Shown here in pieces: positions 42,359 to 62,319 of a DNA stretch of 64,000 bases. A model generated the notes under the pieces. The model was given only the letters and a program-made list of their open reading frames with translations. It was not told where the DNA came from and ran no database searches. The translations under genes were made by a program, and so were the position numbers. Where the stretch lies: positions 6,259-70,258 of the forward strand of contig JANTFR010000001.1 in NCBI GenBank assembly GCA_024763355.1, read 5' to 3'. The DNA comes from Anaerolineales bacterium (lineage in GTDB: Bacteria > Chloroflexota > Anaerolineae > Anaerolineales > DRKV01). How positions within the stretch are numbered: the first letter of the stretch is position 1; each line of letters opens with the position of its first letter.

Positions 42359-42384
42359 GGAGACGCCGGGCGACAATGCCCTGT

Positions 42385-43767: not shown

Positions 43768-43872
43768 CCGTCACCCACCGCCCACCGCCCACCGTCAGCC
43801 CTTCAGCCGTCAGGCGTCAGGCATCAGCTACCGTCCACCGTCTACCATCAACCCTTCACCATTCAGCCACTC
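43768..43872 (+). repeat. About 15 x heptamer array (CCCACCG / GTCAGGC / ACCGTCY / ACCMTTC families) filling the dehydrogenase-epimerase spacer
   Basis: CCCGTCA CCCACCG CCCACCG CCCACCG TCAGCCC TTCAGCC GTCAGGC GTCAGGC ATCAGCT ACCGTCC ACCGTCT ACCATCA ACCCTTC ACCATTC AGCCACT. The complement of 43764-43790 fits a G3+N4 x4 quadruplex pattern. Confidence 0.9.
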
Positions 43873-43885: not shown

Positions 43886-44863
43886 ATGTCCCGATATCTT
43901 CTCACTGGCGCCGCTGGCTTCATCGCCGCCCGCACGGGCGAAATGCTGCTCGAAAACGGCCACACCGTCTTTGGCGTGGACAACATCAACGACGCCTACG
44001 ACGTCCGTATGAAGCAGCACCGTCTGGAAAAACTGCAAACCTACCCCAATTTCACCTTCCGGCGGATGGATATCGCCGACAAGGAAGATGTCCTCTCCCT
44101 GGCGGAGCAGGCCCCCTTCGATGCGGTCATCAACCTGGCCGCCCGCGCCGGGGTGCGCGCCAGCGTCCAAAATCCCTGGGTGTACGTGGATACCAACCTG
44201 ACCGGCACCCTCAACCTGCTGGAGCTCAGCCAGCGCGCCGGCATCCCTAAATTCATCCTGGCCTCCACTTCCAGCATCTACGGGCAGGACGCCCCCCTCC
44301 CCACCCCGGAAACCGCCGACAGCAGCCGCCCTCTCCAGCCCTACGCGGCCAGCAAGAAGGCCGCCGAAGCCATGAGCCACGCCTATCACTACCTGTACGG
44401 CATTGACGTCAGCGTGGTGCGTTTCTTCACCGTCTACGGCCCGGCGGGACGCCCCGATATGTCCGTCTTCCGCTTCATCCGCTGGATTAGCGAGGGCGAA
44501 CCCCTGCACCTCAACGGGGACGGCAGCCAGTCCCGCGGCTTCACCTACGTGGACGACATCGCCCGCGGCGTGGTTCTCGCCCTCCAGCCGGTGGGCTACG
44601 AGATTTTCAACCTCGGCGGGCACGAAAACCTCACCATCAAAGAACTCATCGAGCGCATCGAGGCCCTCACGGGGCGCAAAGCGAACATCGTGCAGCACCC
44701 CTTTCCCCAGGCGGATATGAAAGCCAACCTGGCCGACATCAGCAAGGCGGGAAAGATGCTGGGCTGGGAGCCGGGCGTCAGCCTGGATGAGGGCCTGCGC
44801 CGCACGGTGGCATGGTACAACGAAAACCGCGCCTGGGCGAAGGAACTCTCGCTCAATGTTTGA
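43886..44863 (+). CDS. NAD-dependent sugar-nucleotide epimerase/dehydratase (UDP-glucuronate 4-epimerase-like)
   Basis: LLTGAAGFIAARTGEMLL (GxxGxxG) and YAASKKAAE (YxxxK). Confidence 0.85.
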   Translation: MSRYLLTGAAGFIAARTGEMLLENGHTVFGVDNINDAYDVRMKQHRLEKLQTYPNFTFRRMDIADKEDVLSLAEQAPFDAVINLAARAGVRASVQNPWVYVDTNLTGTLNLLELSQRAGIPKFILASTSSIYGQDAPLPTPETADSSRPLQPYAASKKAAEAMSHAYHYLYGIDVSVVRFFTVYGPAGRPDMSVFRFIRWISEGEPLHLNGDGSQSRGFTYVDDIARGVVLALQPVGYEIFNLGGHENLTIKELIERIEALTGRKANIVQHPFPQADMKANLADISKAGKMLGWEPGVSLDEGLRRTVAWYNENRAWAKELSLNV

Positions 44864-44946
44864 CCACGGATGACGGACCACGGACGACGGACGACTGACC
44901 GCGGACGACGGATGCCCCGCACGTCGCGCTCCGCACCCCGCACCCA
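44862..44946 (+). repeat. Heptamer array (GACSACG x7, then CCGCAC-type units) filling the epimerase-flippase spacer
   Basis: GACCACG GATGACG GACCACG GACGACG GACGACT GACCGCG GACGACG GATGCCC CGCACGT CGCGCTC CGCACCC CGCACCC-ATAC-GTG. Confidence 0.9.
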
Positions 44947-44949
44947 TAC

Positions 44950-46251
44950 GTGAACACCCTCCTGAGCCGCATCCTCAAAAACTCCGGTTATCTCTTCAGC
45001 GCCACGGGGATTACCGCCGCCCTGAGCATGGTGCAGGGCATCCTGGCAGCGCGCCTCTTGGGCGTGACCCAATTCGGCATGTTGGGGGTCATCACCATGT
45101 TTGCCACGGTGGTCAACAAACTGGCCTCCTTCCGCATGAACGAACTGGTGGTCAAATACGTCGCCCAGCGCACGGCGGAGGACGACCACCGCGGCGCGGC
45201 AACCGTCTTCAAGGCTGCCGTCCTGGTGGAAGGCGGCACCTCGCTGGTCGCCTTTGCCGTCCTGATGGCGCTTGCTCCCCTCGGAGCGCGCTACTTCGCC
45301 CACGACCCGGCCACCACTGCCTGGTTTCGACTCTACGGCGGCGGCATCATCCTTGCCAACCTGGTTTTCGAGAGCGGCACCGGGCTGCTCCAGATTGCCG
45401 ACCGCTTCCGGCGCATCGCCTTCATCCAGGTCGGCCAAAGCGTCTTGACCCTGCTGCTGATTAGCGCGGCCTACTGGAAGGGTGCAGGTCTCTTTGCGGT
45501 AGTGCTGGCCTACATGACGGGGAAGGCCCTCGGCTCCCTGGGGATGACCGCGGCCGCTCTTTGGGAAGCGCGTACCCGCTGGGGGGGCGGTTGGTTCCGT
45601 CTCCCTTTGAGGGGCTTGCGCTCCCAATGGCGGGAACTGGCCCGTTTCGCGGTCAGCACCAACCTGAGCGGCACGCTCAGTCTCATCAACAAAGACAGCG
45701 AACTCCTGTGGGTTTCCCTGCTGCGCTCTCCCACCGAGGCTGGCTACTACAAACTGGCGCTGGCGCTTGCCAACCTCGTCCAGATGCCCATCAGCCCCCT
45801 GCCGCGGGCCACCTACCCCGAACTCTCCCGCGAGGTCGCCCGCCGCAACTGGCGCAACGTGCGCTACGTGCTGAAACAAGGTTCGCGAGTAGCCTTTGCA
45901 TACACCGCGGCGGTCGTTGCGGGGCTGGCGCTCCTGGGACGTCCGTTGATTGCCGCCCTGTACACACCGGAATACCTGCCCGCTTACCCCGCTCTGCTTA
46001 TCCTGCTGGCCGGTTTCCTGGTCGCCAACACTTTTTACTGGAACCGGGTCGCCCTGCTCTCCCTGGGACGCGCCGACCTGCCCGCCAAAATCAATTTCGG
46101 GTTGGCGCTCTTCAAAGTTGCGGGCGTCCTGTTGCTGGTTCCCATTTGGGGCTACCTGGCGAATGCCGGTCTGCTGGCCGCCTCCTACATCATCGGCGTT
46201 GCTCTGGCCGTGACACTTTTCTACCGCCAGTTGAAGAAGATGGATGGCTGA
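44950..46251 (+). CDS. Polysaccharide flippase (Wzx / MOP superfamily), about 12 TM
   Basis: 433 aa, highly hydrophobic, N-terminus LLSRILKNSGYLFSATGITAALSMVQGILAARLLG, typical of oligosaccharide flippases. GTG start. Confidence 0.75.
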   Translation: MNTLLSRILKNSGYLFSATGITAALSMVQGILAARLLGVTQFGMLGVITMFATVVNKLASFRMNELVVKYVAQRTAEDDHRGAATVFKAAVLVEGGTSLVAFAVLMALAPLGARYFAHDPATTAWFRLYGGGIILANLVFESGTGLLQIADRFRRIAFIQVGQSVLTLLLISAAYWKGAGLFAVVLAYMTGKALGSLGMTAAALWEARTRWGGGWFRLPLRGLRSQWRELARFAVSTNLSGTLSLINKDSELLWVSLLRSPTEAGYYKLALALANLVQMPISPLPRATYPELSREVARRNWRNVRYVLKQGSRVAFAYTAAVVAGLALLGRPLIAALYTPEYLPAYPALLILLAGFLVANTFYWNRVALLSLGRADLPAKINFGLALFKVAGVLLLVPIWGYLANAGLLAASYIIGVALAVTLFYRQLKKMDG

Positions 46252-46321
46252 CGTACCACGTACCTCGTACTTGCCCACTTGCAAACTTTCCACTTGCTCA
46301 CTTTCCCACTTGCAAACTTTC
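46252..46321 (+). repeat. CGTACYN x3, then 3 x about 16-mer CCACTTGCAAACTTTC-family repeats abutting the GT4 start codon
   Basis: CGTACCA CGTACCT CGTACTT GCCCACTTGCAAACTTTC CACTTGCTCACTTTC CCACTTGCAAACTTTC CTC-ATG. Confidence 0.9.
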
Positions 46322-46324
46322 CTC

Positions 46325-48220: not shown

Positions 48221-48250
48221 CCACGAATGGTCACGAATGAGCACGAATAG
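48221..48250 (-). repeat. 3 x decamer (minus strand CATTCGTGNN), same TTCGTG family as 37557-37606, facing the LOG gene
   Basis: Plus strand CCACGAATGG TCACGAATGA GCACGAATAG; minus strand reads CTATTCGTGC TCATTCGTGA CCATTCGTGG just upstream of the SD. Confidence 0.85.
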
Positions 48251-48257
48251 CATCAAC

Positions 48258-48313
48258 GCACTTGGCACTTGGCACTTGACACGTGATACATGATACGTGA
48301 TACGTGACACGTG
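48258..48313 (+). repeat. 8 x heptamer array (GCACTTG x3, then AYACRTG x5) upstream of the TPR gene promoter
   Basis: GCACTTG GCACTTG GCACTTG ACACGTG ATACATG ATACGTG ATACGTG ACACGTG in constant phase. Confidence 0.9.
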
Positions 48314-48331
48314 ATTATACCCCTCGGCAGG

Positions 48332-48337
48332 TATAAT
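48332..48337 (+). promoter_or_regulatory. -10 box TATAAT exactly 6 nt upstream of the TPR gene ATG (leaderless mRNA predicted)
   Basis: CAGGTATAATCTCATCATG. Confidence 0.5.
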
Positions 48338-48343
48338 CTCATC

Positions 48344-49732
48344 ATGTCTCGCCGCCGCGCCCTCCTTTTCGTTTTCCTGATTTTCCTCCTCGGAGACTTT
48401 GTCTGGTGGCAGGCCGGCGCGCAAAACCGCGCCGCCCGCCGCGCCCTGGCACAGCGTGGCGAAGGCTATTCCCTGAGCGAACTGACCACCCTGGCACAGA
48501 CCGTCCCCGCGCCTGCCCTGTGGGAGGTGGCCGCCTGGCGAGCGGAGGAACGGGAACAATTCTCCATCGCGCGGGCCTGTCTGCTGCGCGCCCGCGCCGA
48601 GGGGATGCTCTCCTCCCAGGGGTACGGGCTGCTGGGCGACCTCACCGCCGAAACGGGCAACCTGGAAACCGCAGTCTCCTTCTGGGAGCAGGCTGTGGAA
48701 CAGGACGCCCCCCAGGCGGACATCTGGCGGCGCAAACTGGCGCAAGTGGCCGAAAGCCGCGGGGATTGGGAGGCCGCCCTGGAGCACTACCGCATTCTCT
48801 CGCAGCACGCCCCCGCAGATGCAGAACTTCTCTGCAAGGTAGCCACGCTGCTTTCCGTCCTGCACCCCGCCGAAGCCCCCGCATATCTGGAACTCGCTGC
48901 CGCCTCGTCTTCTCCCTGCGCCGCGTTGGCCGCATCCCTGCGCGATGCCCTCGTGCAGGGTAGTTTGCAGGACGACCCCGCTTACATCGCCGTGCTGACG
49001 GGACGAGCATTGGGGGCGCATGGGGAATGGGCGCTGGCCGCCGAAGCCTTCCGCCGCGCCGTGGAGCGCAATCCCGATTACGCCGAAGGTTGGGCTTTCT
49101 GGGGACAGGCCCTCGAAACCCTCGGCCTGGACGGAAGTCGCGCCCTGGAAACCGCGCTGCGTCTCGACCCCGCTTCGCTCACCGCGGCCAGTTTGAACGC
49201 CCTCTACTGGCGCAACCGCGGGCAACCCGAAAAAGCGCTGGTCTATTTCTACCGCGCCGCCCGCAGCGAGCCGGAAAACCCGCTGTGGGAGATGGAAATC
49301 GGGGCGACTCTGGCGCAGATGGGGAATATCTCCAATGCGCTGGAACACTACCGCAAAGCGACCTCCCTGGCGTCCAACGACCCCGCTCCCTGGCGCGCCC
49401 TGGCGGAGTTTTGCCTGCAATACGGTCTGGAAATCAAGGAAACCGCCCTGCCCGCCGCCCGCCAAAGCGTTCTGCTGGCCCCTCAGGAGGCCGCCTCCCC
49501 GGAAATCCTGGGACGCGTGTACCTGCGCCTGGGCGACCTGACCAGCGCCCGCCGCCTCGCCCGCCGCGCCCTCGCCCTGGATTCCGGTTACACCCCGGCC
49601 TACCTGGATTTAGGGCTGATTGCATCCCTGCAAGGGGACGACGCCCTTGCCCGCCGCATGTACCAGACCGTTATCTCCCTCGCTCCGGATTCCCCCTGGG
49701 CTGCCCAGGCCCGCCGCCTGCTGGGGCCATAG
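48344..49732 (+). CDS. Tetratricopeptide-repeat protein with N-terminal TM/signal anchor
   Basis: N-terminus RRRALLFVFLIFLLGDFVWW, then repeated A/L/Y-rich 34-aa units (e.g. GWAFWGQALETLGLDGSRALETALRLDP). Confidence 0.7.
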   Translation: MSRRRALLFVFLIFLLGDFVWWQAGAQNRAARRALAQRGEGYSLSELTTLAQTVPAPALWEVAAWRAEEREQFSIARACLLRARAEGMLSSQGYGLLGDLTAETGNLETAVSFWEQAVEQDAPQADIWRRKLAQVAESRGDWEAALEHYRILSQHAPADAELLCKVATLLSVLHPAEAPAYLELAAASSSPCAALAASLRDALVQGSLQDDPAYIAVLTGRALGAHGEWALAAEAFRRAVERNPDYAEGWAFWGQALETLGLDGSRALETALRLDPASLTAASLNALYWRNRGQPEKALVYFYRAARSEPENPLWEMEIGATLAQMGNISNALEHYRKATSLASNDPAPWRALAEFCLQYGLEIKETALPAARQSVLLAPQEAASPEILGRVYLRLGDLTSARRLARRALALDSGYTPAYLDLGLIASLQGDDALARRMYQTVISLAPDSPWAAQARRLLGP

Positions 49733-50541: not shown

Positions 50542-51819
50542 GTGAAGATCTATCTCGACACCATCGGCTGCCGCCTCAACCAGAGCGAAATCGAGCGCAT
50601 GTCCCGCCAGTTTCGCGCCGCAGGACATGAGATTGTAGCGCGCCCCGAGGCCGCCGACCTGGCCGTGGTCAACACCTGTGCGGTGACCACCCAGGCGGCA
50701 GCCGACTCGCGCAAAGTGATTCGGCGGGCGGCACGCGCCGGCGTGGAGGAGGTAATTGCCACCGGCTGCTGGGCGACCCTGGAGCCGGAAGCGGCAGCCG
50801 CCCTCCCCGGAGTGCGCCGCGTGGTGCCGAACCCCCGTAAAGAGGCCCTCGTTCCCGAGGTGCTGCACCTCCCCCCGGAGGTCTTCGACCTGGAGCCGGT
50901 GGAGCGTCAGCCCCTGCCCGGCGCGCGGCTGCGCACCCGCGCCTTCATCAAGGCACAGGACGGCTGTGACAACCGCTGTACCTTCTGCATCACTACGATT
51001 GCCCGCGGGCCGGCGCGCAGCCGTCCCGTGGAGGCCGTCACAGAGGACATTGCGGCTGCACTGGCCGGCGGGGCGCAGGAGATTGTCCTTACCGGCGTCC
51101 ATCTCGGCTCCTGGGGAGCGGATTTCTCGCCGCGGCGTCATCTCCGGCATCTGGTCGAGCACATCCTGACGCATACCACCGTCCCCCGCCTGCGGCTTTC
51201 CTCCCTCGAACCCTGGAACCTGGACGCCGCTTTCTTCGAGTTATGGCAGGAGCCGCGCCTATGCCGGCATCTCCATCTGCCGCTGCAATCCGGCTGCGAT
51301 GCCACCCTGCGCCGCATGGCCCGCAAGACGACCCGTAAATCCTTCGCCGCCCTGGTGGAGGCCGCCCGTAAGGTCGCTCCCGACATCGCCATCACCACCG
51401 ACATCATCGTGGGCTTCCCCGGCGAGAGCGAAGATGAGTTCGAGGCCAGCCTGGATTTCGTTCGCCGCATGGAGTTCGCCGCCGGGCACGTCTTCACCTA
51501 TTCGCCGCGGCCCGGCACCGCCGCCGCCCGCATGAAGGGGCAGGTTCCCCACGCGGTACGCAAGGCGCGCAACGCCCGCATGCAAGCCGTCTTTGCAGAG
51601 AGCGGAGCGCGCTATCGGGCGCGCTTCCTGGGCGCGACCCGGCAGGTGCTTTGGGAAAGCGCCGTCTCCCTCGGCCCCGAAGGCTGGACGCTCAGCGGCC
51701 TGACCGACAACTACCTGCGCGTCCACGCCCAGGCCCCGCAAAACCTGTGGAACCGTCTTTCTGCCGTGCGTCTCACCGCCCTGGAAGGCGGCGCGCTGCG
51801 CGGCGTCCTGGCCGGATAA
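50542..51819 (+). CDS. mtaB: Radical-SAM methylthiotransferase, MiaB-like (MtaB type)
   Basis: N-terminal UPF0004 domain IYLDTIGCRLNQSE...VVNTCAVT and radical-SAM cluster CDNRCTFCITTIARG. GTG start. Confidence 0.75.
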   Translation: MKIYLDTIGCRLNQSEIERMSRQFRAAGHEIVARPEAADLAVVNTCAVTTQAAADSRKVIRRAARAGVEEVIATGCWATLEPEAAAALPGVRRVVPNPRKEALVPEVLHLPPEVFDLEPVERQPLPGARLRTRAFIKAQDGCDNRCTFCITTIARGPARSRPVEAVTEDIAAALAGGAQEIVLTGVHLGSWGADFSPRRHLRHLVEHILTHTTVPRLRLSSLEPWNLDAAFFELWQEPRLCRHLHLPLQSGCDATLRRMARKTTRKSFAALVEAARKVAPDIAITTDIIVGFPGESEDEFEASLDFVRRMEFAAGHVFTYSPRPGTAAARMKGQVPHAVRKARNARMQAVFAESGARYRARFLGATRQVLWESAVSLGPEGWTLSGLTDNYLRVHAQAPQNLWNRLSAVRLTALEGGALRGVLAG

Positions 51820-51823: not shown

Positions 51824-52195
51824 ATGTCCTTGCGCGTCGGCACCGACCTGGTGGAAATCGCCCGTCTGGAGCAAATCATCGCCCGGCACGGGGAGCGCTT
51901 TCTGCGGCGCATCTACACCCCGCAGGAACTGGAAGACTGCGCCGGCAAACTGCCCTCCCTGGCGGCGCGTTGGGCGGCCAAAGAAGCGGTCGCCAAAGCC
52001 CTGGGAACAGGCATCGGGCCGGTGGCCTTCCGCGAAATCGAAGTGCGCCGCGGCCCACAGCGGGAGCCCACCCTGCACCTGCACGGCAACGCCGCCGCTC
52101 TCTCCGCCGACCTCGGCCTGACGGAGTGGGCCGTCAGTTTGAGCCACACCGACCGCTACGCCGTGGCGATGGTCGCCGCGGTGGGAGGACGGTAG
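51824..52195 (+). CDS. acpS: Holo-[acyl-carrier-protein] synthase
   Basis: VGTDLVEIARLEQ..., AARWAAKEAVAKALGTG, SLSHTDRYAVAMV. Confidence 0.85.
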   Translation: MSLRVGTDLVEIARLEQIIARHGERFLRRIYTPQELEDCAGKLPSLAARWAAKEAVAKALGTGIGPVAFREIEVRRGPQREPTLHLHGNAAALSADLGLTEWAVSLSHTDRYAVAMVAAVGGR

Positions 52196-52204
52196 ACGGT
52201 GGAT

Positions 52205-52239
52205 AGTGCGGAGTGCGGAGTGCGGGGTGCGACGTGCGG
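52205..52239 (+). repeat. 5 x heptamer array (A/G/C)GTGCG(G/A)
   Basis: AGTGCGG AGTGCGG AGTGCGG GGTGCGA CGTGCGG, preceded by GGACGGTAGACGGTGGAT, which starts inside the acpS 3' end and spans its stop codon. Confidence 0.9.
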
Positions 52240-52270
52240 TAGACTACCTGACCACCCGCCCCTGACTAAT

Positions 52271-52450
52271 CCGACCAATTCGACCAATCCGACCACTTCG
52301 ACCAATCCGACCACTTCGACCACTCCGACCACTCCGACCACTCTGACCAATCAGACCACTTCGACCACTTCGACCACTCCGACCAATCAGACCACTTCGA
52401 CCACCCCGACCAATTCGACCAATCAGACCACTCCGACCAATCAGACCAAC
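52271..52450 (+). repeat. 20 x 9-mer array, consensus YNGACCAMT, ending 6 nt before the HerA-like ATG
   Basis: CCGACCAAT TCGACCAAT CCGACCACT TCGACCAAT CCGACCACT TCGACCACT CCGACCACT CCGACCACT CTGACCAAT CAGACCACT TCGACCACT TCGACCACT CCGACCAAT CAGACCACT TCGACCACC CCGACCAAT TCGACCAAT CAGACCACT CCGACCAAT CAGACCAAC. Confidence 0.95.
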
Positions 52451-52456
52451 CGACCC

Positions 52457-54145
52457 ATGAACCAACTCGCCTACATCATCGGCGGGGGACTGAAAGAGAA
52501 CTTTCGCGCCCGCCTCAACGTCTCACCGCAGGAAGTACAGGAGGGGGCTTTTGTCGTCATCGAGAGCGGGGAATGGCTGTTCTACGGGCTAGTCACCGAC
52601 ATCCAGTTGGGGGCCACCGACCCTCGTTTTGCGGATGAGCAAACCGAAGACCGCCTGCCCCCCGTGCTGGCGCGCGCCCTCCACGGGCAGACCCTCTACA
52701 CCAATCTGGAAATTCTGCCCGCCCTGATGCTGGAACGCGGTCCGCAGGAGGAGGCGGCATTTGCCCGCTGGCTGGATGAAATCGAGAGCGGCTTGCGGGA
52801 GAAGCCGCGCCCCATGCCGGTCAAGACCGTCCCGCCGCACCACGCGCCCGTGCGCCTGGCAACCGAGGGCGACATCGCCGAAATTTTCGGCAAGGCCGAG
52901 AAGAGCAACTTCGTCATCGGGCACACCCGCGAGCAGGGACATCCTGTGCGCGTCAACCTGGAGAAGTTCGTCCAGCGTTCCGCCGGCATCTTCGGGGCCA
53001 CCGGCACGGGCAAATCCTTTCTGACGCGTCTCGTCCTGGCGGGGTTGATGAAGCACAACGTGGCCTCCGTGCTGGTCTTCGACATGCACAACGAATACGG
53101 CTTCGACGACACCGCCTCGGATACGGGAGCGCGGGTCGTCGGGCTGCGTACCAAATTCCGGAGCAAGGTGCGCGTCGTCGGGCTGGGGGCGGGAGCCACC
53201 ATCCGGGGGCAGGTTCCCGATTTCAACCTGGAAATCCCGATGAGCGCCATCCGCCCGGCGGATATCGAGATGCTGACGCGGGAACTCAATCTCAAAGAGA
53301 CCACCCCTACCACGCTGGAAGCCCTGGTGCATACCTTCGGGGCGCAGGGCTGGTTCAAGGCCTTCAAGGAAATGACCACCGAAGTGTGGACGGAGGAGGA
53401 AACAGGCAAGAAATTCCCCGCGCCGGGCAGCGTGGCAGCCTGGGCCAACAAGCACGGCGTCAACGTGATGGCTGCCGAGGGGCTGCACAGCAAATTGCGC
53501 CGCCTGTTCAACAAACCCTACATCGTGGAAAACCCCGCCAGCGACGGCATCGCCGAGGTGATTAAGGCCCTGGAGGCCGGGCAGCACGTCATCCTCTCCT
53601 TCGGTAAACACGAGAGCGACCTGGATTACCTCCTGGTCAGTAACCTGCTGACCCGACACATCCGCGAGCGCTGGGAGCAGACCACCAACCGCTTCCGCAC
53701 CCACGGAGAGCAGGAGCCGCGTCCACTGGTGATTGCCGTCGAGGAGGCCCACAAACTGCTCAATCGCGAGATGGCCGCCCAGACGACTTTCAGCACGATT
53801 GCCCGCGAACTGCGCAAGTACTACGTCACCCTGCTGATTATTGACCAGCGCCCCTCGCAGATTTACGACGAGGTCATGTCCCAACTGGGGACGCGCATCT
53901 CCGGCTGGCTGGGGGACGAGGACGACATCCGGGCGGTGCTCTCCGGCCTGGCAGGACGGGATGCCCTGCGGGGGATGCTGGCGCGTTTGCAGCCCAAGGA
54001 GGAAGTCCTGCTCCTGGGGTGGGGCGTCCCCATGCCGCTGCCGGTGCGCTCCCGCCGCTACGACGATGCCTTTTGGAAGGAATTACTGGGGGGGAAAAGC
54101 GGGGGAGATACGGTGGGGAAAACGATAAAGGAATTAGGGTTCTAA
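52457..54145 (+). CDS. HerA/FtsK-like (DUF87-type) P-loop ATPase
   Basis: Walker A GIFGATGTGKSFLTRLVLAG, Walker B-like PLVIAVEEAHKLL, YYVTLLIIDQRPSQI. Start at MNQLAYIIGGG (ATG 52457); the track ORF start at 52199 reads through the repeat array. Confidence 0.75.
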   Translation: MNQLAYIIGGGLKENFRARLNVSPQEVQEGAFVVIESGEWLFYGLVTDIQLGATDPRFADEQTEDRLPPVLARALHGQTLYTNLEILPALMLERGPQEEAAFARWLDEIESGLREKPRPMPVKTVPPHHAPVRLATEGDIAEIFGKAEKSNFVIGHTREQGHPVRVNLEKFVQRSAGIFGATGTGKSFLTRLVLAGLMKHNVASVLVFDMHNEYGFDDTASDTGARVVGLRTKFRSKVRVVGLGAGATIRGQVPDFNLEIPMSAIRPADIEMLTRELNLKETTPTTLEALVHTFGAQGWFKAFKEMTTEVWTEEETGKKFPAPGSVAAWANKHGVNVMAAEGLHSKLRRLFNKPYIVENPASDGIAEVIKALEAGQHVILSFGKHESDLDYLLVSNLLTRHIRERWEQTTNRFRTHGEQEPRPLVIAVEEAHKLLNREMAAQTTFSTIARELRKYYVTLLIIDQRPSQIYDEVMSQLGTRISGWLGDEDDIRAVLSGLAGRDALRGMLARLQPKEEVLLLGWGVPMPLPVRSRRYDDAFWKELLGGKSGGDTVGKTIKELGF

Positions 54146-54251
54146 TGCGCTCAGAACCTGTAAGCGCAGGCAGGCGCGCTTACCCCGTCGCCGGTTTCTC
54201 CCTCGTCAGGTCGGAGAATTCCGAATCTTTTCTCACTTTCAAGTAGTTTGT

Positions 54252-54257
54252 TACAAT
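54252..54257 (+). promoter_or_regulatory. -10 box TACAAT exactly 6 nt upstream of the methyltransferase ATG (leaderless mRNA predicted)
   Basis: GTTTGTTACAATCAAGGCATG; no SD. Confidence 0.45.
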
Positions 54258-54263
54258 CAAGGC

Positions 54264-55136
54264 ATGAACGAACCAATCATCCGCCCGCTGCTTGGTGACT
54301 GCCGCGAGGTGCTCCGTACCCTGGACGACGAATCGATTGACCTGATTGTTACTTCGCCGCCCTACGCCGACCAGCGCAAAAACACCTACGGGGGCATCCA
54401 TCCCGACGATTATGTGGCCTGGTTCCTGCCGATTGCGGCGGAATTGCAACGCGTCCTCAAACCCACGGGAACTTTCATCCTGAACATCAAAGAACGCGTT
54501 GTCAAGGGGGAACGCCACACCTACGTCCTCGAGTTGATACTTGCCATGCGCCGCCAGGGGTGGCTCTGGACGGAAGAATTCATCTGGCACAAAAAGAATT
54601 CCTACCCCGGCAAGTGGCCTAATCGTTTTCGGGATGCCTGGGAACGCTTGCTGCAATTCAACAAACAACGGCAGTTCCACATGTACCAGGAAGCCGTGAT
54701 GGTACCCATGGGGGACTGGGCCAGGAAACGCCTCAAGAATCTGAGCGATACGGACAAAATTCGGGACGAATCACGGGCCGGCAGCGGCTTTGGGAAACGG
54801 GTTGCCAACTGGGTGGGACGCGAGAAGGTGTATCCCACCAACGTCCTGCACATGGCTACCGAGACACGCAACCGCAACCACAGCGCGGCTTTCCCCGAAG
54901 CGCTTCCGGCATGGTTTATCAAACTGTTTACTCAGGAGGGCGACTGGGTGCTGGACCCCTTCATGGGTTCCGGCACAACTCTGCGGGCGGCGTACCGCCT
55001 GCGCCGCAACGCGATTGGGATTGACATCATGGAAACCTATTACGAGCAGGTCAAGGCCAGTTTGAAAGACCTGCAAACCCCACAACTCTCCCTTTTCGAG
55101 GCACAGGAAGCCTATGAACCCCCTCGACCTGAATGA
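54264..55136 (+). CDS. Beta-class DNA methyltransferase (N4-cytosine or N6-adenine; SPPY suggests m4C)
   Basis: Motif IV DLIVTSPPYADQR near the N-terminus and motif I VLDPFMGSGTTLRAA near the C-terminus (IV-before-I order). Confidence 0.85.
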   Translation: MNEPIIRPLLGDCREVLRTLDDESIDLIVTSPPYADQRKNTYGGIHPDDYVAWFLPIAAELQRVLKPTGTFILNIKERVVKGERHTYVLELILAMRRQGWLWTEEFIWHKKNSYPGKWPNRFRDAWERLLQFNKQRQFHMYQEAVMVPMGDWARKRLKNLSDTDKIRDESRAGSGFGKRVANWVGREKVYPTNVLHMATETRNRNHSAAFPEALPAWFIKLFTQEGDWVLDPFMGSGTTLRAAYRLRRNAIGIDIMETYYEQVKASLKDLQTPQLSLFEAQEAYEPPRPE

Positions 55137-55842
55137 TGTGCGCGATTTCGTGGCCGAAAACATTGGAGCCTTCCACAACCGCCGCCTGGAAAGACTCCAA
55201 TCCCTGCAACTCCGGCAAATTCTGAAGCGTAAGAACCCGTACCTGTTCCGCGCCAAGAACATCGATACCTCCCAAGCACTGGTAAGGGAGTTGCTGGACG
55301 CGCATCTCTCCTCGCAAGAGGAAACCATCTTCGGCCAATTTCTGGAAGAATTAGCCGTTTTCGTATGTCAGCGCGTTTACGGTGGACGAAAATCCACCGC
55401 CGAAGGGATTGACCTGGAATTCGAGAAGGACGGCGTGTACTACATCGTGGCCGTCAAGTCCGGCCCCAACTGGGGCAACAGCAGCCAGATTGCCCGCATG
55501 AAAAACAACTTCAAACAGGCCCGCCGGCGGCTGCGTCAAAACCGGCAAATGGGCAATGTCGTGGCCGTCAACGGGTGCTGTTACGGAAAAGACAACAAGC
55601 CGGACAAAGGCGATTACCTGAAATTGTGCGGGCAGCGCTTTTGGGAGTTCATTTCCGGCAACGACCGTCTCTACCTCGAAATCATCGAGCCGTTGGGGCA
55701 CCAGGCGGAAGAGCGCAACGCGGCTTTTCGGCGGGAATACGCCCGCATCGTCAACCTGTTCACAATGGACTTCGGAGCCGAATTCTGCACCGAAGGTCTG
55801 ATTGACTGGGAAAAACTGGTGCGTTTCAATTCTGCCCTCTGA
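55114..55842 (+). CDS. Putative type II restriction endonuclease (TdeIII/PmeII-like by recollection)
   Basis: 23-nt overlap with the methyltransferase gene. LKRKNPYLFRAKN, GIDLEFEKDGVYYIVAVKSGPNWGNSSQ (candidate D..ExK nuclease core). Family name is from memory only. Confidence 0.55.
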   Translation: MNPLDLNDVRDFVAENIGAFHNRRLERLQSLQLRQILKRKNPYLFRAKNIDTSQALVRELLDAHLSSQEETIFGQFLEELAVFVCQRVYGGRKSTAEGIDLEFEKDGVYYIVAVKSGPNWGNSSQIARMKNNFKQARRRLRQNRQMGNVVAVNGCCYGKDNKPDKGDYLKLCGQRFWEFISGNDRLYLEIIEPLGHQAEERNAAFRREYARIVNLFTMDFGAEFCTEGLIDWEKLVRFNSAL

Positions 55843-55876
55843 CTGTCCATCTCCCTTCATAGGAGACACCAAAACC

Positions 55877-56695
55877 ATGAAGACTTACCCTCTCCCCGAC
55901 GGCACCTCCCTTCCCCCCCTGGGGCTGGGAACCTGGCGCATGGGCGGCGGGATGAACGCCGATACATCCCGCGACGCCGAGGTGCTGGAGGCTTTGCGTT
56001 ACGCTCTCCAAATCGGCTACCGCCATTTCGATACTGCCGAAATCTACGGCAACGGGCACGCCGAAGAACTTCTCGGACGGGCGCTGCGCGAGAGCGGCAT
56101 CCCGCGGGAGGAAATTTTCATCACCTCCAAAATCTGGCCCAACCACCTGACCTACGACGGAACGCGGCGCGCCTGCGAGGGCAGTTTGCGCCGCCTGGGA
56201 ACGGATTATCTCGACCTGTACCTCATCCACTGGCCGCCCTCTTTGCCGCTGGAAGATGGTTTTCGCGCCCTCAACGCCCTCGTGCGGGAGGAACGGGTGC
56301 GTTACCTGGGGGTCAGCAATTTCGATGTGCCCCTCATGCGCCGCGCCGAGGCCCTCAGCGAGACGCCTCTGCTGACCAACCAGGTTCCGTACAGCCTCTT
56401 CAACCGCGATTACGCCCGCAACGGGGTACTGAAGCACTGCCAGGAGCACGGCATCCTGCTAACGGCCTACACCCCGCTGGAAAAAGGCCGGCTGGCGAAT
56501 TCTCCCGTCCTGGCTTCGATTGCCGCGGCCCGCGGGGCCACTCCCGCCCAGATTGCGCTGGCCTGGCTGCTGGCACAGCCCGGCGTGATTACCATCCCAA
56601 AGGCGGTGCAGCGCCGCCATCTGGAGGAGAATTTGGCCGCGGCGGACATCCAACTCACCCCCGAAGAAATGCGCGCTCTGGACGCGCTGGCCTGA
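55877..56695 (+). CDS. Aldo/keto reductase
   Basis: LGLGTWRMGG, HFDTAEIYGNG, DLYLIHWP. Start at the internal MKTYPLPDG with SD AGGAGA. Confidence 0.85.
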   Translation: MKTYPLPDGTSLPPLGLGTWRMGGGMNADTSRDAEVLEALRYALQIGYRHFDTAEIYGNGHAEELLGRALRESGIPREEIFITSKIWPNHLTYDGTRRACEGSLRRLGTDYLDLYLIHWPPSLPLEDGFRALNALVREERVRYLGVSNFDVPLMRRAEALSETPLLTNQVPYSLFNRDYARNGVLKHCQEHGILLTAYTPLEKGRLANSPVLASIAAARGATPAQIALAWLLAQPGVITIPKAVQRRHLEENLAAADIQLTPEEMRALDALA

Positions 56696-56704
56696 GGAAA
56701 ACTC

Positions 56705-57610
56705 GTGAGTGCTCAGAAATCACATCCCATAGAAGTGCGCGTCCCGGCGACGACCGCCAACCTGGGTCCGGGCTTCGACAGCCTGGCGCTGGCGCTGGAC
56801 TTATGGAACAAGACGCGCTTCACCCTCAGCGATACACCGGGGGTGCACTGCGAGATTACGGGGGAGGGGGCCGGCAATCTCCCCAAAGGGGAGGAGAACC
56901 TAATTTGGCGCGCCCTCACCCGTCTGTACGCCGAGGCAGGCGCGGCGCCGCCATCCGGGGTGCGGATTGCCTGTGAAAACGGTATCCCTCTGGGGTCCGG
57001 GCTGGGTTCCAGCGCCGCCGCGGTGGTGAGTGGTCTCCTGGGGGGCAACGCCCTCCTGGGGGAACCGTTCTCCCCGCGGGACATCATCCGCCTGGCGGCC
57101 TCCATCGAGGGACATCCCGACAACGCCGCCGCGGCCCTGCTCGGCGGGCTGGTGATTGTCAGCGAAAAACATCTGCGGCAAGTGCCCATTCCTCCCTGGG
57201 CGGTGGTGTACGTCCTCCCGCAGGTGAAATTCTCGACGGAGCAGGCGCGGGCCGCCCTCCCCGCGCAGGTGACGTTTTCCGCCGCGGCGGAGAGCATCGG
57301 GCGCGCCCTGCTGGTCGTGGAAGCCCTGCGAGACCGGGATTTGCCCCTCCTGCGGGAGGCCACCCGCGACGTACTGCACCAGCCTTACCGCCTGCCGCAC
57401 CTCCCCGGCATGGAGGCCGCCCTGGAGGCCGCCCGGCAGGCAGGCGGAGCGGCCGCCCTCTCCGGGGCAGGGCCGGGGATGGTCGTCTTCTGCGAGAGAA
57501 GGCAGACCGCCGCCATCGCAGAGGCCGCCCAGGCCGCTTTCCGCGCCGCCGGTGTGGAGAGCCGCGTCTGGCTGCTGCGCGATTCGGCCCAGGGAGCGAT
57601 TGTGGTATAG
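56705..57610 (+). CDS. thrB: Homoserine kinase
   Basis: VRVPATTANLGPGFDSLALAL and the GHMP motif GIPLGSGLGSSAAAVV. GTG start. Confidence 0.85.
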   Translation: MSAQKSHPIEVRVPATTANLGPGFDSLALALDLWNKTRFTLSDTPGVHCEITGEGAGNLPKGEENLIWRALTRLYAEAGAAPPSGVRIACENGIPLGSGLGSSAAAVVSGLLGGNALLGEPFSPRDIIRLAASIEGHPDNAAAALLGGLVIVSEKHLRQVPIPPWAVVYVLPQVKFSTEQARAALPAQVTFSAAAESIGRALLVVEALRDRDLPLLREATRDVLHQPYRLPHLPGMEAALEAARQAGGAAALSGAGPGMVVFCERRQTAAIAEAAQAAFRAAGVESRVWLLRDSAQGAIVV

Positions 57611-57621
57611 TGGACGTATGC

Positions 57622-57654
57622 AGACCTCACAGGTCTGAGAGACCTGTGAGGTCT
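57622..57654. repeat. Palindromic hairpin element, copy 2 (AGACCTCACAGGTCT-gag-AGACCTGTGAGGTCT)
   Basis: Perfect 15-bp inverted repeat 12 nt after the thrB stop and 17 nt before the response-regulator ATG. Could act as a terminator/attenuator, but has no U-tract. Confidence 0.9.
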
Positions 57655-57671
57655 CCTCAAAGGAGAATGCC

Positions 57672-58349
57672 ATGGGCACCAGAATTCTGGTTATCGAAGA
57701 TGACGAGGCCATCGTCCGTTTTGTGCGCCGGGGGCTGTCGTATGAAAATTACGAAGTGGAGGTAGCCACCGACGGGTTGACCGGCCTGCAAAAGGCCCAG
57801 CAAGACCCGCCCGACCTGGTGGTGCTGGATTTGATGCTCCCCGGCCTGGACGGGATGGAGGTCTGCCGCCGGCTGCGGGCAGGCAGCAACGTGCCCATCC
57901 TGATTTTGACGGCGCGGGATTCGGTCAACGACCGCGTTATGGGGCTGGATATGGGCGCGGACGATTACATGGTCAAACCCTTCAATCTGGACGAACTCCT
58001 GGCGCGCATCCGCGCCCTCCTGCGGCGCACCAAGCCCGCCGTCCCCCAGGTGCTGCGCTTTGCCGACCTGGAACTGGATACCGGCACGCGGCAGGCGCGG
58101 CGCGGCGAGCGTACCATTTCCCTGACCTCCAAAGAATACGACCTGCTGGAGTTGTTTCTCCTCCACCCCCGTCAGGTGCTGACCCGGGATTTCATCTTCG
58201 ACCGCGTCTGGGGCTACGATTTCGGCGGGGCCAGCAACATCATCGAAGTGTACATGCGCTATCTGCGGCAAAAACTGGAAGAAGGGGGCGAGCCGCGCCT
58301 GCTCCATACCGTGCGGGGGGTAGGTTACGTGCTGAGGGAACCCGACTAG
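57672..58349 (+). CDS. OmpR/PhoB-family response regulator
   Basis: [31 protein letters not shown], and a winged-helix C-terminus [19 protein letters not shown]. Confidence 0.9.
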
Positions 58350-59759
58350 ATGACGCTGCGCTCCCGCTTCACCCTGCTCTACACGCTGCTCCTGGGCGGG
58401 TTGCAATTGGTACTCGGCATCGTCCTTTACCAGGTCATCTCCGGAACCATCTTGCAGCAGGTGGATGACGTTTTGCTGGATACCTCCCAACGGGTAGTCC
58501 GCTACATCAACGCTACCGCCGCGCAGCCCCTCACCGCCGCATCTTTCGAGCCGCTAGAGCAGGAACTGGAAACGGAGCGCACCGGCATCAGCAGCATCCA
58601 ATTGTGGGGAACATCCGAAACGCTCATCTGGGCCTGGCCGCGGCGCATCGGGCCGCTGGTCAAACCCCTTTCGCGCCCCGCGCTCTACGCCAACCGCTCG
58701 GAATTCGTCTCGGCCACCTTGAACGGGGAACGCCTGCGGGTGCTCTCCCTCGTTCTGCGGCGCGGCGGCGAACCTTTCGGGGTGCTCCAAATCGGGATGG
58801 GGCTGACCTTTTTGGAGCGGTTGCGCTCTTCGGTTTTGCAGATTCTCCTCTTGTGGAGCATAATTACCGCTTTGGGAGCCGGCCTGATTGTGTGGTTCGC
58901 CACCCAAAGGCTGCTCGCCCCCGTGGAAAGCGTCACCCGCGTCGCCTTGCAAATCACCCGCGCTGACGACCTTTCCCGGCGCATCCCCCCCTACGGGCTG
59001 CCGCCCAACGATGAAATCGGCCAGTTGATTATGGCCTTCAACCAGACTCTGGAGCGCCTGGAACGCCTGTTCCTTGTCCAGCGGCGCTTTCTGGCCGACG
59101 TGAGCCACGAACTGCGGACTCCCCTGACGGTCATCAAGGGCAACGTGGCCCTCCTGCGCCGCCTCCCTGGGCAGGATGTGGAATCGCTGGACAGCATCGA
59201 AAACGAAGTTGACCGTCTCACCCGGCTGGTGGGCGATTTGCTGGTGCTCTCCCGCGCCGAGAGCGGCAATCTGCCCCTGACGCGCACGCCCACCGAACTC
59301 GATGCCCTGGTGCTGGAGGTCATCGGCGAATTGCAGGTGCTGGCGAAAGACCACGTGCGCCTGGAAATCGGGGATTTCGACCAGGTGCAGGTATGCGCAG
59401 ACCGCGACCGTCTCAAACAGGTTCTCGTCAACCTGGTGGGCAACGCCCTGCGCTACACGCCGGCGGGCGGCACGGTGCGCGTGGGCATCGGCAAAAGTGA
59501 AGGGCAGGCGCACCTCAGCGTGCAGGATAGCGGCCCCGGCATCGCTCCCGAAGATTTGCCCCACATTTTCGAGCGTTTTTATCGGGCGGAGAAGGCCCGG
59601 ACGCGCGGCAAAGACGGGCAGGGATTCGGCCTGGGACTTTCCATCGCCTATTGGATTGTGCGCGCCCACGAAGGCCGCATTACAGTGGATTCTCGTCCCG
59701 GAGAGGGCACCACCTTTCACATCTGGTTGCCCCTCTCCCACCCCGATTGTGCTACCTGA
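58350..59759 (+). CDS. Sensor histidine kinase (2 TM + HAMP + HisKA + HATPase_c)
   Basis: H-box FLADVSHELRTPLTVIKGN, N-box LVGNALRYTP, G1 VQDSGPGI, G2 GFGLGLSIAYWIV. Starts immediately after the regulator stop. Confidence 0.9.
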   Translation: MTLRSRFTLLYTLLLGGLQLVLGIVLYQVISGTILQQVDDVLLDTSQRVVRYINATAAQPLTAASFEPLEQELETERTGISSIQLWGTSETLIWAWPRRIGPLVKPLSRPALYANRSEFVSATLNGERLRVLSLVLRRGGEPFGVLQIGMGLTFLERLRSSVLQILLLWSIITALGAGLIVWFATQRLLAPVESVTRVALQITRADDLSRRIPPYGLPPNDEIGQLIMAFNQTLERLERLFLVQRRFLADVSHELRTPLTVIKGNVALLRRLPGQDVESLDSIENEVDRLTRLVGDLLVLSRAESGNLPLTRTPTELDALVLEVIGELQVLAKDHVRLEIGDFDQVQVCADRDRLKQVLVNLVGNALRYTPAGGTVRVGIGKSEGQAHLSVQDSGPGIAPEDLPHIFERFYRAEKARTRGKDGQGFGLGLSIAYWIVRAHEGRITVDSRPGEGTTFHIWLPLSHPDCAT

Positions 59760-60585
59760 CCCCCAAAACGTTCCGCGCCTGTGCACACAGGCTGGCGCCC
59801 CCTGCATTCAACCACTCTTGCAGGCGGGCGCTTTGCTTTTTCCCGGCCCGCGCGTCGGCATAGATGCCCGCTCCCCAGTAAACGTAACGGACGGTTTCCG
59901 CCGCCCACAGCGATTCGGGACGGCTGGCCCCCCCGATGCCGCCGTTGTACCCGGCCAGCGCCAGCCGGGCCTCTTGCCCAAAGGCATCCAGGGCGCGGCG
60001 CAGATACCCCATCCCCCGCAAAGCATTGATATCCGGGTCGTAGGGGTTTTCTCCGCTCTTGAAGTGGAACGGCATGACCTGAAACAGCCCCATCGCTCCG
60101 GCGCGAGAAGTGGCCTGCGGGTTGCCGCAGGATTCAATCTGCATCACCGTGGCAACCAGATTGGGGTCCATGTCCCACTGGCGTGCCCAGCGCAGGATGT
60201 CCTTCTTCCAGTATTGCACTTCGGGGGTGAAGAGAGGGGCCAAATTTTTCTTCTTCCCGCCGGGAGCGGCCTCCGCCTCCGGTGAGGGCGCCTGTGCCGC
60301 AACAACGGCTGCTGCTTGTTTCTGTGCGGCGGGAGCAGGCGTAGCCGCGGGGAAAAAGGCGTACACGAAGAAAGCCAGCAATCCCCCAAAGAAGAGCACT
60401 AGCGCAGGCGGGAGCAGGACGGGGAACAAGAAAATCCCGTCTTCGGAGGCGTACCAGGGGAAAGATGCCCCCTCGTCGTATTCCTCCGAAAGGAGATAGG
60501 TTTCCTCCCAGGTTTCTGCTCCCCAATCCGGCGGATATTCGACCGCAGGGAGGAAATCAGCCTCCCAAAATTCGTTCTCAGGCAT
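59752..60585 (-). CDS. Membrane-anchored lytic transglycosylase (SLT domain)
   Basis: VMQIESCGNPQATSRAGAMGLFQVMPFHF (catalytic E-S region + GLMQ-like motif) and N-terminal TM FLFPVLLPPALVLFFGGLLAFFVYAFF. I prefer ATG 60585 over GTG 60615. Confidence 0.8.
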   Translation of the reverse strand: MPENEFWEADFLPAVEYPPDWGAETWEETYLLSEEYDEGASFPWYASEDGIFLFPVLLPPALVLFFGGLLAFFVYAFFPAATPAPAAQKQAAAVVAAQAPSPEAEAAPGGKKKNLAPLFTPEVQYWKKDILRWARQWDMDPNLVATVMQIESCGNPQATSRAGAMGLFQVMPFHFKSGENPYDPDINALRGMGYLRRALDAFGQEARLALAGYNGGIGGASRPESLWAAETVRYVYWGAGIYADARAGKKQSARLQEWLNAGGASLCAQARNVLGVR

Positions 60586-60629
60586 CGGGTGAACCCTTGC
60601 GCGACGCTCGAACACCTTAGTCGCCGTCG

Positions 60630-60667
60630 AGTCCTCACAGGTCTATCAAGGCAGACCTGTGAGGACT
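60630..60667. repeat. Palindromic hairpin element, copy 3 (AGTCCTCACAGGTCT-atcaaggc-AGACCTGTGAGGACT)
   Basis: 15-bp perfect stem. Relative to copies 1 and 2 the A>T change in the left arm is matched by T>A in the right arm (compensatory). Lies between the membrane-protein gene and the SLT gene. Confidence 0.9.
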
Positions 60668-60694
60668 GTCAGGGAGAGGAAAGGGAGCGGCACA

Positions 60695-61447: not shown

Positions 61448-61570
61448 GGGAAACCTCCAAAAGGGGGATTTGCGAGGACCGGAAAAGGCGGCAAATCCAA
61501 AACGGCTGAGAAAATCTCGGCGCGCAGGTACCTGAAAGTACGGTTTTCAGGGCATTGCAATGGCAAGCAC

Positions 61571-61600: not shown

Positions 61601-61648
61601 GGAGATTTTTACTCATGGAGGTAAAACGCAAGGATAGAAGTCCCCCAC

Positions 61649-62309: not shown

Positions 62310-62319
62310 TTGCACGTAA

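Follow-up and report, generated by a model that had tools for sequence, protein, structure and literature searches.

What is the 261-nt tract that separates acpS from a herA-like gene in an uncultured Anaerolineales bacterium, and does it do anything for the gene that follows? The question arises in a 64,000-nt stretch of the assembly GCA_024763355.1 (contig JANTFR010000001.1, positions 6,259 to 70,258), which we call the window and whose own numbering is used below. Here, the entire spacer consists of short tandem units, and a preliminary description of the region 52186-52456 had listed heptamers followed by 20 nonamers that run up to the start codon of herA; all of these units and coordinates were confirmed in the sequence. 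Tandem repeats of the heptamer class, such as STRR, LSSR and the TAACTGA repeats, have featured in surveys for decades, and the roles suggested for them are still no more than proposals. Our analysis covered the window and about 100 kb of loci from relatives, not whole genomes. We favour, with a probability of roughly 0.55, the view that the spacer is a slippage-generated member of a family similar to STRR and LSSR, that it has been filtered by selection, and that it serves as a single-stranded, Shine-Dalgarno (SD)-independent leader for herA.

The tract begins inside acpS. The segment GGACGGTAGACGGTGGAT (52187-52204, + strand) had been regarded as a simple anchor, and its coordinates stand, but it can be resolved into about 2.5 units of a GACGGTR heptamer (GGACGGT AGACGGT GGAT) that supply the acpS stop codon; the final two codons and the TAG (52193-52195) fall within these first repeat units. 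It is followed on the same strand by a G-rich, stop-proximal heptamer module composed of AGTGCGG x3, GGTGCGA and CGTGCGG (52205-52239; TRF period 7, 5.0 copies, score 49), and then by a 31-nt transition segment (52240-52270, +) that reads TA GACTACCT GACCACCC GCCCCT GACTAAT. This linker was also correctly placed, but it is not a plain segment, as it contains two 8-mer remnants, GACTACCT and GACCACCC, whose units are identical to those of an array at 40353-40415. The remainder is occupied by 20 phase-locked nonamers of the consensus YNGACCAMT (52271-52450, +), which TRF reports as 19.9 copies with a score of 211 or, as a period of 36, with a score of 251, and by a truncated final unit, CGACCC (52451-52456, +), that adjoins the herA ATG at 52457 without any SD sequence. 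The GACCA core is constant in 20 of the 20 nonamers, with variation only at unit positions 1, 2, 8 and 9, and the 180-nt nonamer block contains 11% G and 45% C (C:G = 81:20). The periodicity of the spacer is far beyond chance: its autocorrelation at lag 9 is 0.69, against a maximum of 0.41 among 2000 shuffles. Thus, the spacer shows the head-to-tail units of 5 to 11 nt, beyond chance length, that are characteristic of the LSSR/STRR-like class.

No stop interrupts the herA frame in the 261 nt that reach back to the end of acpS, whose TAG is itself in that frame, a coincidence, as we rate it, of the 9-nt phasing. The gene could therefore be called as an open reading frame (ORF) of 648 aa beginning at GTG 52199, and the open frame does explain this long call, as had been suggested. 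Nevertheless, the longer ORF is an artefact of nonamers that happen to be stop-free, since the homologues start at ATG 52457. This true start yields a DUF87 ATPase of 562 aa (52457-54145, +; Pfam DUF87, 3e-27) with the N-terminus MNQLAYIIGGGLK. The best 120 HerA homologues listed are 558 to 586 aa long and all align only from ATG 52457 onward; the best among them come from metagenome-assembled genomes (MAGs) of Anaerolineales and Chloroflexota, and one database protein (P0001) is 100% identical and has 562 aa. The codon-usage score also favours ATG 52457. Moreover, the orthologous spacer of the closest relative (L001) has an in-frame TAA 27 nt 5′ of the herA ATG and a length, 104 nt, that is not a multiple of 3, while further tracts have in-frame stops 12 to 60 nt upstream of their genes. 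On this comparison of homologues and frames, the acpS-herA tract is non-coding, and the possibility raised at the outset that it is simply a translated low-complexity N-terminus finds the homologue lengths and the L001 stop against it. At the other end of the tract, acpS (51824-52195, +; holo-ACP synthase, Pfam ACPS, E = 5e-20) has a C-terminal tail that, downstream of ...VAAxG, is different in every relative, which fits a tract that supplies the present stop codon. In practice, tracts of this kind make ORFs look longer than they are, here 648 aa in place of the real 562 aa, and they probably cause errors in the assembly and annotation of Chloroflexota MAGs.

The tract is one of many. TRF called 12 intergenic tracts of short units (7- to 10-mers) in the window, the target included, and repeats with periods of 5 to 40 occupy 1235 of 6161 intergenic nt (20%) compared with 561 of 57839 coding nt (1%), so that over the 64 kb of genome examined the arrays are numerous and mainly non-coding, as in the LSSR/STRR-like class. 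Nine co-directional spacers consist of at least 45% repeat, and in most of these nine the tract extends from the upstream stop to within 0 to 25 nt of the downstream start. They share units and also the order of modules on the sense strand: GACGGTR, GTGCGG and GACGACR/GACCACR heptamers come first, next GACTACCT and GACCACCC octamers, then GACCAATYC or AACCAATGC nonamers, and finally the ATG. For instance, the tract at 19097-19289 (-), with GACGGTR, GTGCGGC, GACGACR/GACCACG, GACTACCTGACCA, ATCCGACCA and ATGCAACCA, mirrors the architecture of the target nearly module by module. GACGGTR is found directly after stop codons at about 19270-19300 (-) in the window, at 3563 in L208 and at 132 and 4068 in L210. 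In addition, the upstream stop codon often lies within the first GAC-phased heptamer (TAGACGGTGGA, TGACGGTGGA), as at 52193-52204 and about 19270-19300 (-) in the window, at 3560-3575 in L208 and at 129-145 and 4065-4080 in L210; judging from these sites, the upstream gene seems to take its stop codon from the tract, and its protein a reshaped C-terminal tail. We also observed that the tracts are clustered, with none in positions 1-17000 or 53000-64000, though both regions hold several spacers of more than 100 nt.

Synteny of the miaB-like gene, acpS and herA is conserved, so the orthologous spacers can be compared directly. In L001, whose HerA is 98% identical and whose flanks are 92-95% identical in nucleotides, the 104-nt spacer contains a different heptamer module (CAGACCA, about 6 copies), the retained octamer GACTACCT, about 4 nonamers and the same terminal ...GACCAACCGACCCATG as in the window, the last 41 nt or so being conserved between the two. 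The number of nonamers has therefore gone from 20 to about 4, or the reverse, between genomes whose HerA proteins are 98% identical. The spacer of L002 (HerA 91%) measures 58 nt and is made of unrelated C/T/A-rich units. Arrays are found nowhere in L003, L205 and L206 (HerA 87%, 86% and 81%), where acpS and herA overlap by 4 nt, and there are none in L207 (HerA 87%), which has a 22-nt spacer; thus, three of these four array-free relatives have the ATGA overlap. Other orthologous spacers measure 112, 91, 122, 86 and 134 nt in the window and 82, 79, 43, 21 and 67 nt, respectively, in L205. Differences are also found within a species: in that of L002, strains whose flanks share 96-98% identity have acpS-herA alleles of 58, 85 and 98 nt, the last with wholly different units (ACACAGATGG x3.9 and ACCCATTC x4.5), and an ACGTGAT array in their divergent LOG/TPR spacer is present in 5.4, 3.4 or 8.4 copies. 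Such differences in alleles and copy number between near-identical flanks mean that the tracts turn over far faster than point substitution, as would be expected from slippage or unequal exchange. Judged from these alignments, the acpS-herA tract is hypervariable, in agreement with the early expectation that its copy number should vary, and it shares with the LSSR/STRR-like class an instability of copy number between close relatives.

The trait is also sporadic. Most of 84 Anaerolineales herA loci are without arrays; the ones with dense arrays are the window, L001, L005 and L025, and L002 is a weaker case. The array-rich assemblies comprise the source MAG, GCA_054037075.1, GCA_054010875.1, JBDRGC01 and DYKW01, and the sisters free of arrays comprise GCA_054042105.1, GCA_054028915.1, GCA_034435695.1 and DAOTZN01. 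Two pairs of array-rich and array-free sisters were found among these loci; L025, which independently bears arrays in its own acpS-herA spacer, is array-rich, while L006, whose HerA is 94% identical to that of L025, has no tandem array called by TRF. By its distribution over these loci, the array trait is patchy and recent, and this lineage-specific, sporadic occurrence is again that of LSSR/STRR-like repeats.

If the units change so readily, what is conserved? The answer seems to be base composition with respect to the mRNA. All 13 co-directional spacers that bear arrays (from the window, L001, L002, L005 and L025) have more C than G on the sense strand over the 40 nt next to the start (binomial p = 2.4e-4), compared with 19 of 32 array-free spacers, and the mean G content of these 40 nt is 0.12 in the former and 0.24 in the latter. 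A further seven of eight spacers, from L208 and L210, obey the same rule, the other being a tie. An orientation bias of this kind was what the preliminary description had proposed to look for, and it is clearly there. It is also visible in the units, as GACCA occurs 43 times on the sense strand and its complement TGGTC once, and GACGACR 19 times and its complement not at all. GTGCGG is stop-proximal, with a mean relative position of 0.13, and its complement, CCGCAC, lies nearer the start (0.52) in other spacers; likewise, GTGCGG and GACGGTR adjoin stops and the complements CCGCAC and YACCGTC sit closer to starts, with inverted GACGGTR near a start at 43829-43846 in the window and in L025. Since the orientation of a module switches with its position, the conserved feature is composition relative to the mRNA and not the sequence of the unit. 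A G-rich stop-proximal part is frequent without being universal, given that 7 of the 13 spacers have G over C in their first 40 nt. As a cause of this polarity, mutational strand bias is unlikely: the bases that usually accumulate on the sense strand through transcription-associated deamination and leading-strand skew are G and T, and C is not among them.

Array-adjacent starts also stand apart in their translation-initiation region. The window genome uses SD sites, with GGAG, GAGG or AGGA within 18 nt of 23 of 45 ordinary starts, compared with 1 of 8 array-adjacent starts (Fisher p = 0.06). None of these motifs lies within 18 nt upstream of the herA ATG, as was first noticed from the sequence. 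With the nonamer block ending 6 nt from this SD-less start in the forward orientation, the target has the layout of the TAACTGA type. In addition, the 186 nt that precede the herA ATG contain no ATG, GTG or TTG, as read from the unit list. The mean predicted folding energy of the region from -60 to +20 is -7.7 kcal/mol for array-adjacent starts and -16.2 kcal/mol for other starts (Mann-Whitney p = 0.009), and for herA it is only -0.8 kcal/mol. When the whole spacer is folded to its minimum free energy, 97.5% of the 40 nt next to the herA ATG are unpaired; the suspicion that this C/A-rich RNA is unstructured is thus upheld by prediction. In fact, the whole spacer folds no better than its shuffles (z = -0.49 and -1.5), in spite of a 7-nt complementarity between CGGAGUG in the heptamers and CACUCCG at nonamer junctions. 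Single-stranded CA-repeat tails are known to strongly raise translation initiation through ribosome standby (PMC5934652).

Across spacers, we found no systematic RNA structure signal (z from -2.1 to +2.2), one tract of L005 excepted. In that tract (4921-5113, -), (GGAGATT)x5 is followed after a 4-nt gap by the complementary (CTCCAAT)x19, which ends 2 nt before an ATG, so that a hairpin of about 30 bp is predicted (z = -10.5 relative to shuffles), followed by a long single-stranded C-rich tail. A known structured RNA family was considered for the target and rejected, as Rfam gave no match at gathering score in the whole window and the fold z-scores of the spacer are those given above.

How might such a tract have come to lie in front of herA? 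We suggest that, in certain Anaerolineales lineages, replication slippage or unequal exchange creates and remodels the tandem units, which would expand into any unconstrained DNA that lies between genes and their promoter or SD elements. The MiaB-like radical-SAM gene (50542-51819, +; Pfam UPF0004 and Radical_SAM), which keeps its synteny in all relatives, is the first shown of a co-directional run with spacers of 3 to 4 nt to its neighbours. Given this co-directionality, the small upstream gaps and a spacer without a sigma-70-type promoter or an intrinsic terminator, co-transcription of the miaB-like gene, acpS and herA is the most economical inference, and the tract would be transcribed as an untranslated intercistronic segment of that operon. 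The ATGA overlap of acpS and herA in relatives is, by its geometry, a layout for translational coupling, and the tract has probably replaced this ancestral stop/start overlap. Because 261 nt now separate the two genes and no SD is left, herA would be initiated from a G-poor, start-codon-free, single-stranded leader of 186 nt, most plausibly, by analogy, through ribosome standby or scanning that does not depend on an SD. Selection would remove tracts that place G-rich, SD-like, start-codon-bearing or structure-forming RNA beside starts; with only tracts that are G-poor on the sense strand tolerated next to a start, a strict orientation rule follows. A change in copy number would alter the length of the spacer and possibly the output of herA, and it could do so at a high rate.

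Several points weigh against this account. Co-transcription, the route of initiation, the effect of copy number and any adaptive value are things that we infer. Arrays also exist without a nearby start, as in a convergent spacer of L005 (1399-1534), and inside promoter regions, so start-adjacency is not required for an array to exist. Furthermore, the AACCAATGC tracts are rich in ATG codons, and freedom from start codons is not a general property. The orientation rule could be explained by purifying selection alone with no positive role for the tracts, coding third positions also have C over G on the sense strand, although more mildly (skew -0.21 and -0.06), and several of the spacers used for the polarity test are orthologous and hence not fully independent. 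With regard to the data, the sample amounts to 64 kb plus about 100 kb from relatives and not to whole genomes, copy numbers derive from metagenome assemblies, gene starts are those of our own caller based on ORFs and codon usage, and the search that found no sigma-70-type promoter in the spacer used an E. coli-type consensus.

The alternative that survives best, possible although on balance doubtful, is that the tracts are purely a by-product, that is, debris left by slippage in a lineage whose replication or repair is altered, neutral or slightly harmful and with no role for herA. Their polarity would then reflect nothing but the removal of orientations that are harmful because they are G-rich, form structures or bear SD sequences or start codons. 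Much of what was described above is compatible with this idea: the patchy distribution with array-rich and array-free sister genomes, the wholesale replacement of sequence within one species, the presence of tracts in convergent and promoter regions, the way in which -10 boxes and SD sequences are left untouched while the space around them fills, and the conservation of composition but not of unit sequence. However, herA must still be translated from this leader, which makes the tract at least its de facto initiation region, and the polarity is very strict. The invariance of the GACCA core in 20 of 20 nonamers, with variation allowed at 4 of 9 positions, also hints at constraint that goes beyond composition, although shared descent of the units can mimic it. 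Even if the tracts were mere slippage debris, they would be evidence of a lineage-specific mutational regime.

At the opposite extreme is a much bolder extension of the leader hypothesis, which we consider improbable: some Anaerolineales might possess a genome-wide, repeat-encoded system of intercistronic initiation, in which polar composite arrays replace both SD sites and stop/start overlaps. In such a system, G-rich heptamers of the GACGGTR type, nucleated at the stop, would grade into G-poor, C/A-rich units at the start, and the arrays would act as tunable, hypermutable platforms for ribosome standby or scanning, possibly read by a dedicated single-stranded-RNA-binding factor at GACCA-type cores. 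If true, this could also explain the STRR and TAACTGA repeats of other filamentous bacteria.

Less probable again is a rut-like attenuator, where the 180 nt of C-rich untranslated RNA would recruit Rho and partly end the transcription of herA, the length of the tract setting the polarity. C-rich, G-poor, unstructured and untranslated RNA has the textbook composition of a rut site, and by composition and predicted fold the nonamer block (C:G 81:20, predicted to be single-stranded and untranslated) exceeds the length of at least about 70 to 80 nt that such a site takes. Nevertheless, similar tracts precede housekeeping genes (tsaB-, rimI- and UDP-glucose-dehydrogenase-like), for which attenuation would be costly, many sister tracts have just 60 to 120 nt, and rho is not in the window.

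A protein-binding function is slightly harder still to defend, and we regard it as unlikely. Here, GACCA/AACCA cores placed 7 to 9 nt apart would form a multivalent array for a lineage-specific protein that binds RNA or DNA, either of the S1, Csp or KH type or a nucleoid protein, and would regulate translation or chromosome structure. The invariant GACCA, its strand bias (43 to 1) and its recurrence at periods of 7, 8 and 9 would suit such a protein, and similar proposals have been made for the TAACTGA repeats (PMC4679880) and the Nostoc heptamers (bioRxiv 10.1101/2022.06.06.494920). The units, however, are wholly different between tracts and even, at a single locus, between strains of one species; those of other array-rich lineages are unrelated, and no candidate protein was identified.

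It is very unlikely that the tract is a phase-variation (contingency) switch in which the number of repeats toggles herA. The copy number is highly variable between relatives and herA adjoins a restriction-modification (R-M) pair, a typical phase-variable neighbourhood, but the repeats lie neither inside an ORF nor between -35 and -10 elements, where those of contingency loci are found, a 9-nt unit cannot shift the frame, and tracts of the same kind precede housekeeping genes. A different situation was observed in L005 (16141-16395), where an ATG is joined in frame to a SAM-methyltransferase domain (...LDLGCGDG) by 35 copies of AATCTCC/AATCCCC, and where the array is followed by no other start in that frame; judging from this arrangement, the 7-nt unit could make a true frame-shifting phase switch, unlike the target.

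Least probable of all, and largely refuted by the gene comparisons, is the idea that the tract is translated, either as a T/N/P/S-rich N-terminal extension of HerA from GTG 52199 or by read-through of the TAG into an AcpS-linker-HerA fusion, with the nonamers encoding TNPTNSTNPTTS or TNPTNST-type peptides: the 261-nt open frame, the acpS TAG in the herA frame and a unit length that is a multiple of 3 would permit it, but the extension occurs in 0 of the 120 listed homologues, the 100%-identical protein begins with the ATG-encoded residue, the spacer of L001 contains an in-frame TAA and has a length not divisible by 3, codon usage scores better from ATG 52457, and other tracts hold in-frame stops. 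CRISPR, with repeats of 23 to 50 nt that alternate with unique spacers, is ruled out, as it already was at first reading, by contiguous 7- to 9-mer units without spacers.

The remaining tracts of the window give an idea of the settings in which the family occurs. In a divergent spacer, ACCGATGA is repeated 11.4 times at 21497-21587 with units that are 100% identical, and this perfect octamer array suggests a very recent expansion. Another tract (30867-31008, -) lies between two minus-strand genes, and TTCGTGGACA x4.6 (37557-37606) is found immediately 5′ of a TATAAT box. A tract of 7-mers followed by 8-mers occupies the spacer between the tsaE-like and tsaB-like genes (40295-40415, +) and ends 3 nt before the ATG. 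The AACCAATGC x7.6 tract (41111-41178, +) precedes a rimI-like gene; within 41111-41199, the AACCAATGC nonamers hold in-frame ATGs at -57, -48 and -30 of this gene, so the RimI-like N-terminus, by its reading frame, could be variable in length (MQPMQPIQPMQPPPPTIRP-M...). In the case of TGAACCAA x9 (42384-42458, +), the start ATG of the UDP-glucose dehydrogenase-like gene lies inside the last unit. Further tracts are made of CCCACCG/CCGTCAG (43774-43828, +), followed by the inverted GACGGTR motif (43829-43846), of GACGACG x7 and then CCCCGCA x4 (44862-44945, +), and of ACGTACC/ACTTGCCC (46251-46322, +), which ends 2 nt before an ATG.

The last tract (48222-48315) lies in a divergent promoter and 5′ untranslated region (UTR), where the conserved -10 boxes and the SD are intact. 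Beside it, the element GGTATAAT (48316-48346) stands 6 to 7 nt 5′ of the start codon (48344) of the TPR-protein gene, and five relatives conserve it; it is also found at 5775-5803 in L001 and in L002, L003 and L205. This spacing suggests that the mRNA of the TPR-protein gene may be leaderless. About 20 nt further upstream, a second, inverted GGTATAATC (GATTATACC) is probably used by the divergent LOG-like gene; the 5′ UTR of that gene would then cross the repeats before it reaches an intact GGAGG. A comparable layout, TATAAT-N9-ATG, is found at the helicase gene (37627).

Downstream of herA, between it and an aldo-keto reductase gene, lies the R-M pair (54264-55842), which consists of an N6_N4 DNA methylase and an EcoO109I-family endonuclease with a 23-nt overlap. 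L205, L207 and L210 have this pair, L001 and L002 lack it, and L003 has an AAA_14/DUF4143 ATPase and a methylase in its place; the region adjacent to herA is thus a variable defence islet.

Metagenomes were scanned as well. The 5′ end of herA, used to look for further alleles of this species, gave 0 matches. Four consecutive GACCAMTNN units gave more than 120 heterogeneous matches, many of them collagen-like coding repeats on the opposite strand (GGACCAATAG...), and about 12 of 80 were intergenic arrays at most 70 nt upstream of a long ORF. As evidence of homology, these matches were set aside because they are too heterogeneous. We note that the contigs concerned (L085-L164), many of them unrelated, contain GACCAAT-type nonamer arrays, which in L101, L106, L108, L120, L140, L144, L157 and L160 lie 7 to 70 nt upstream of long ORFs in the same orientation, while many others are Gly-X-Y repeats of the collagen-like type encoded on the opposite strand.

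How does the acpS-herA tract compare with what is known? Full-text literature searches returned no report of tandem or heptanucleotide repeats in Anaerolineae or Chloroflexi, in line with the earlier statement that no role had been described in this type of genome. The repeats known as STRR, including the Nostoc heptamers (bioRxiv 10.1101/2022.06.06.494920), are likewise abundant, intergenic and lineage-specific, occur in filamentous hosts and lie near starts or promoters. They differ in being heptamers of heterocystous cyanobacteria, whereas the target unit is a 9-mer in an Anaerolineales host, and no STRR consensus unit was found among the units seen here (YNGACCAMT, AGTGCGG, GACGGTR and others); the initial comparison with STRR therefore holds at the level of the class and not at that of consensus membership. 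We know of no polarity rule reported for STRR. A similar relation exists with LSSR, which have units of 5 to 11 nt and, as summarised from Mrazek et al. 2007 in PMC4679880, are sporadically distributed, predominantly heptameric and mostly non-coding, with polymerase slippage as their proposed origin. That survey, as presented there, does not include these Anaerolineales, and the tracts described here add to its picture a density of 20% of the intergenic nucleotides of the window and an architecture that is composite and polar.

For the leader proposed here, the relevant comparison is with the CA-rich standby tails of Sterk, Romilly and Wagner (2018, PMC5934652), which are also single-stranded C/A-rich RNA placed 5′ of a start and which boost initiation without base pairing to 16S rRNA. 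These tails are engineered, act in E. coli together with a ribosome binding site (RBS) and saturate at 16 to 18 nt, in contrast to the natural 186-nt leader of herA, which has no SD; their functional equivalence would rest on the analogy.

By its organisation, the closest published analogue appears to be the TAACTGA heptamer of marine Beggiatoaceae and some Cyanobacteria and Bacteroidetes (MacGregor 2015, PMC4679880), for which a translational role was proposed as a hypothesis. As in the window, its units are intergenic, tandem and forward-oriented, end a few nucleotides from starts that mostly have no SD and contain one G each, no functional class stands out among the downstream genes, and close strains differ by indels of whole units and relatives by shorter spacers. 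The TAACTGA repeats, however, have one dominant unit, usually in 2 to 6 copies, whereas here units of 7, 8, 9 and 10 nt occur in up to 20 copies, composite tracts fill the spacer from stop to start with a polarity from G-rich to C-rich, and the host belongs to Chloroflexota; the TAACTGA unit itself is absent from every tract of the window. With start-abutting, RBS-less heptamers already described in these groups, the phenomenon has a published analogue, though the searches found none for Chloroflexota. We view the acpS-herA tract as a known class of repeats met in a lineage that is new for it, where its architecture follows a rule that is also new and can be quantified. Together with its sister tracts and relatives, the locus offers a clean comparative system, with orthologous spacers that have or lack arrays, alleles within a species and a strand rule that leads to specific, testable predictions on SD-independent initiation, Rho loading and tuning by repeat length.

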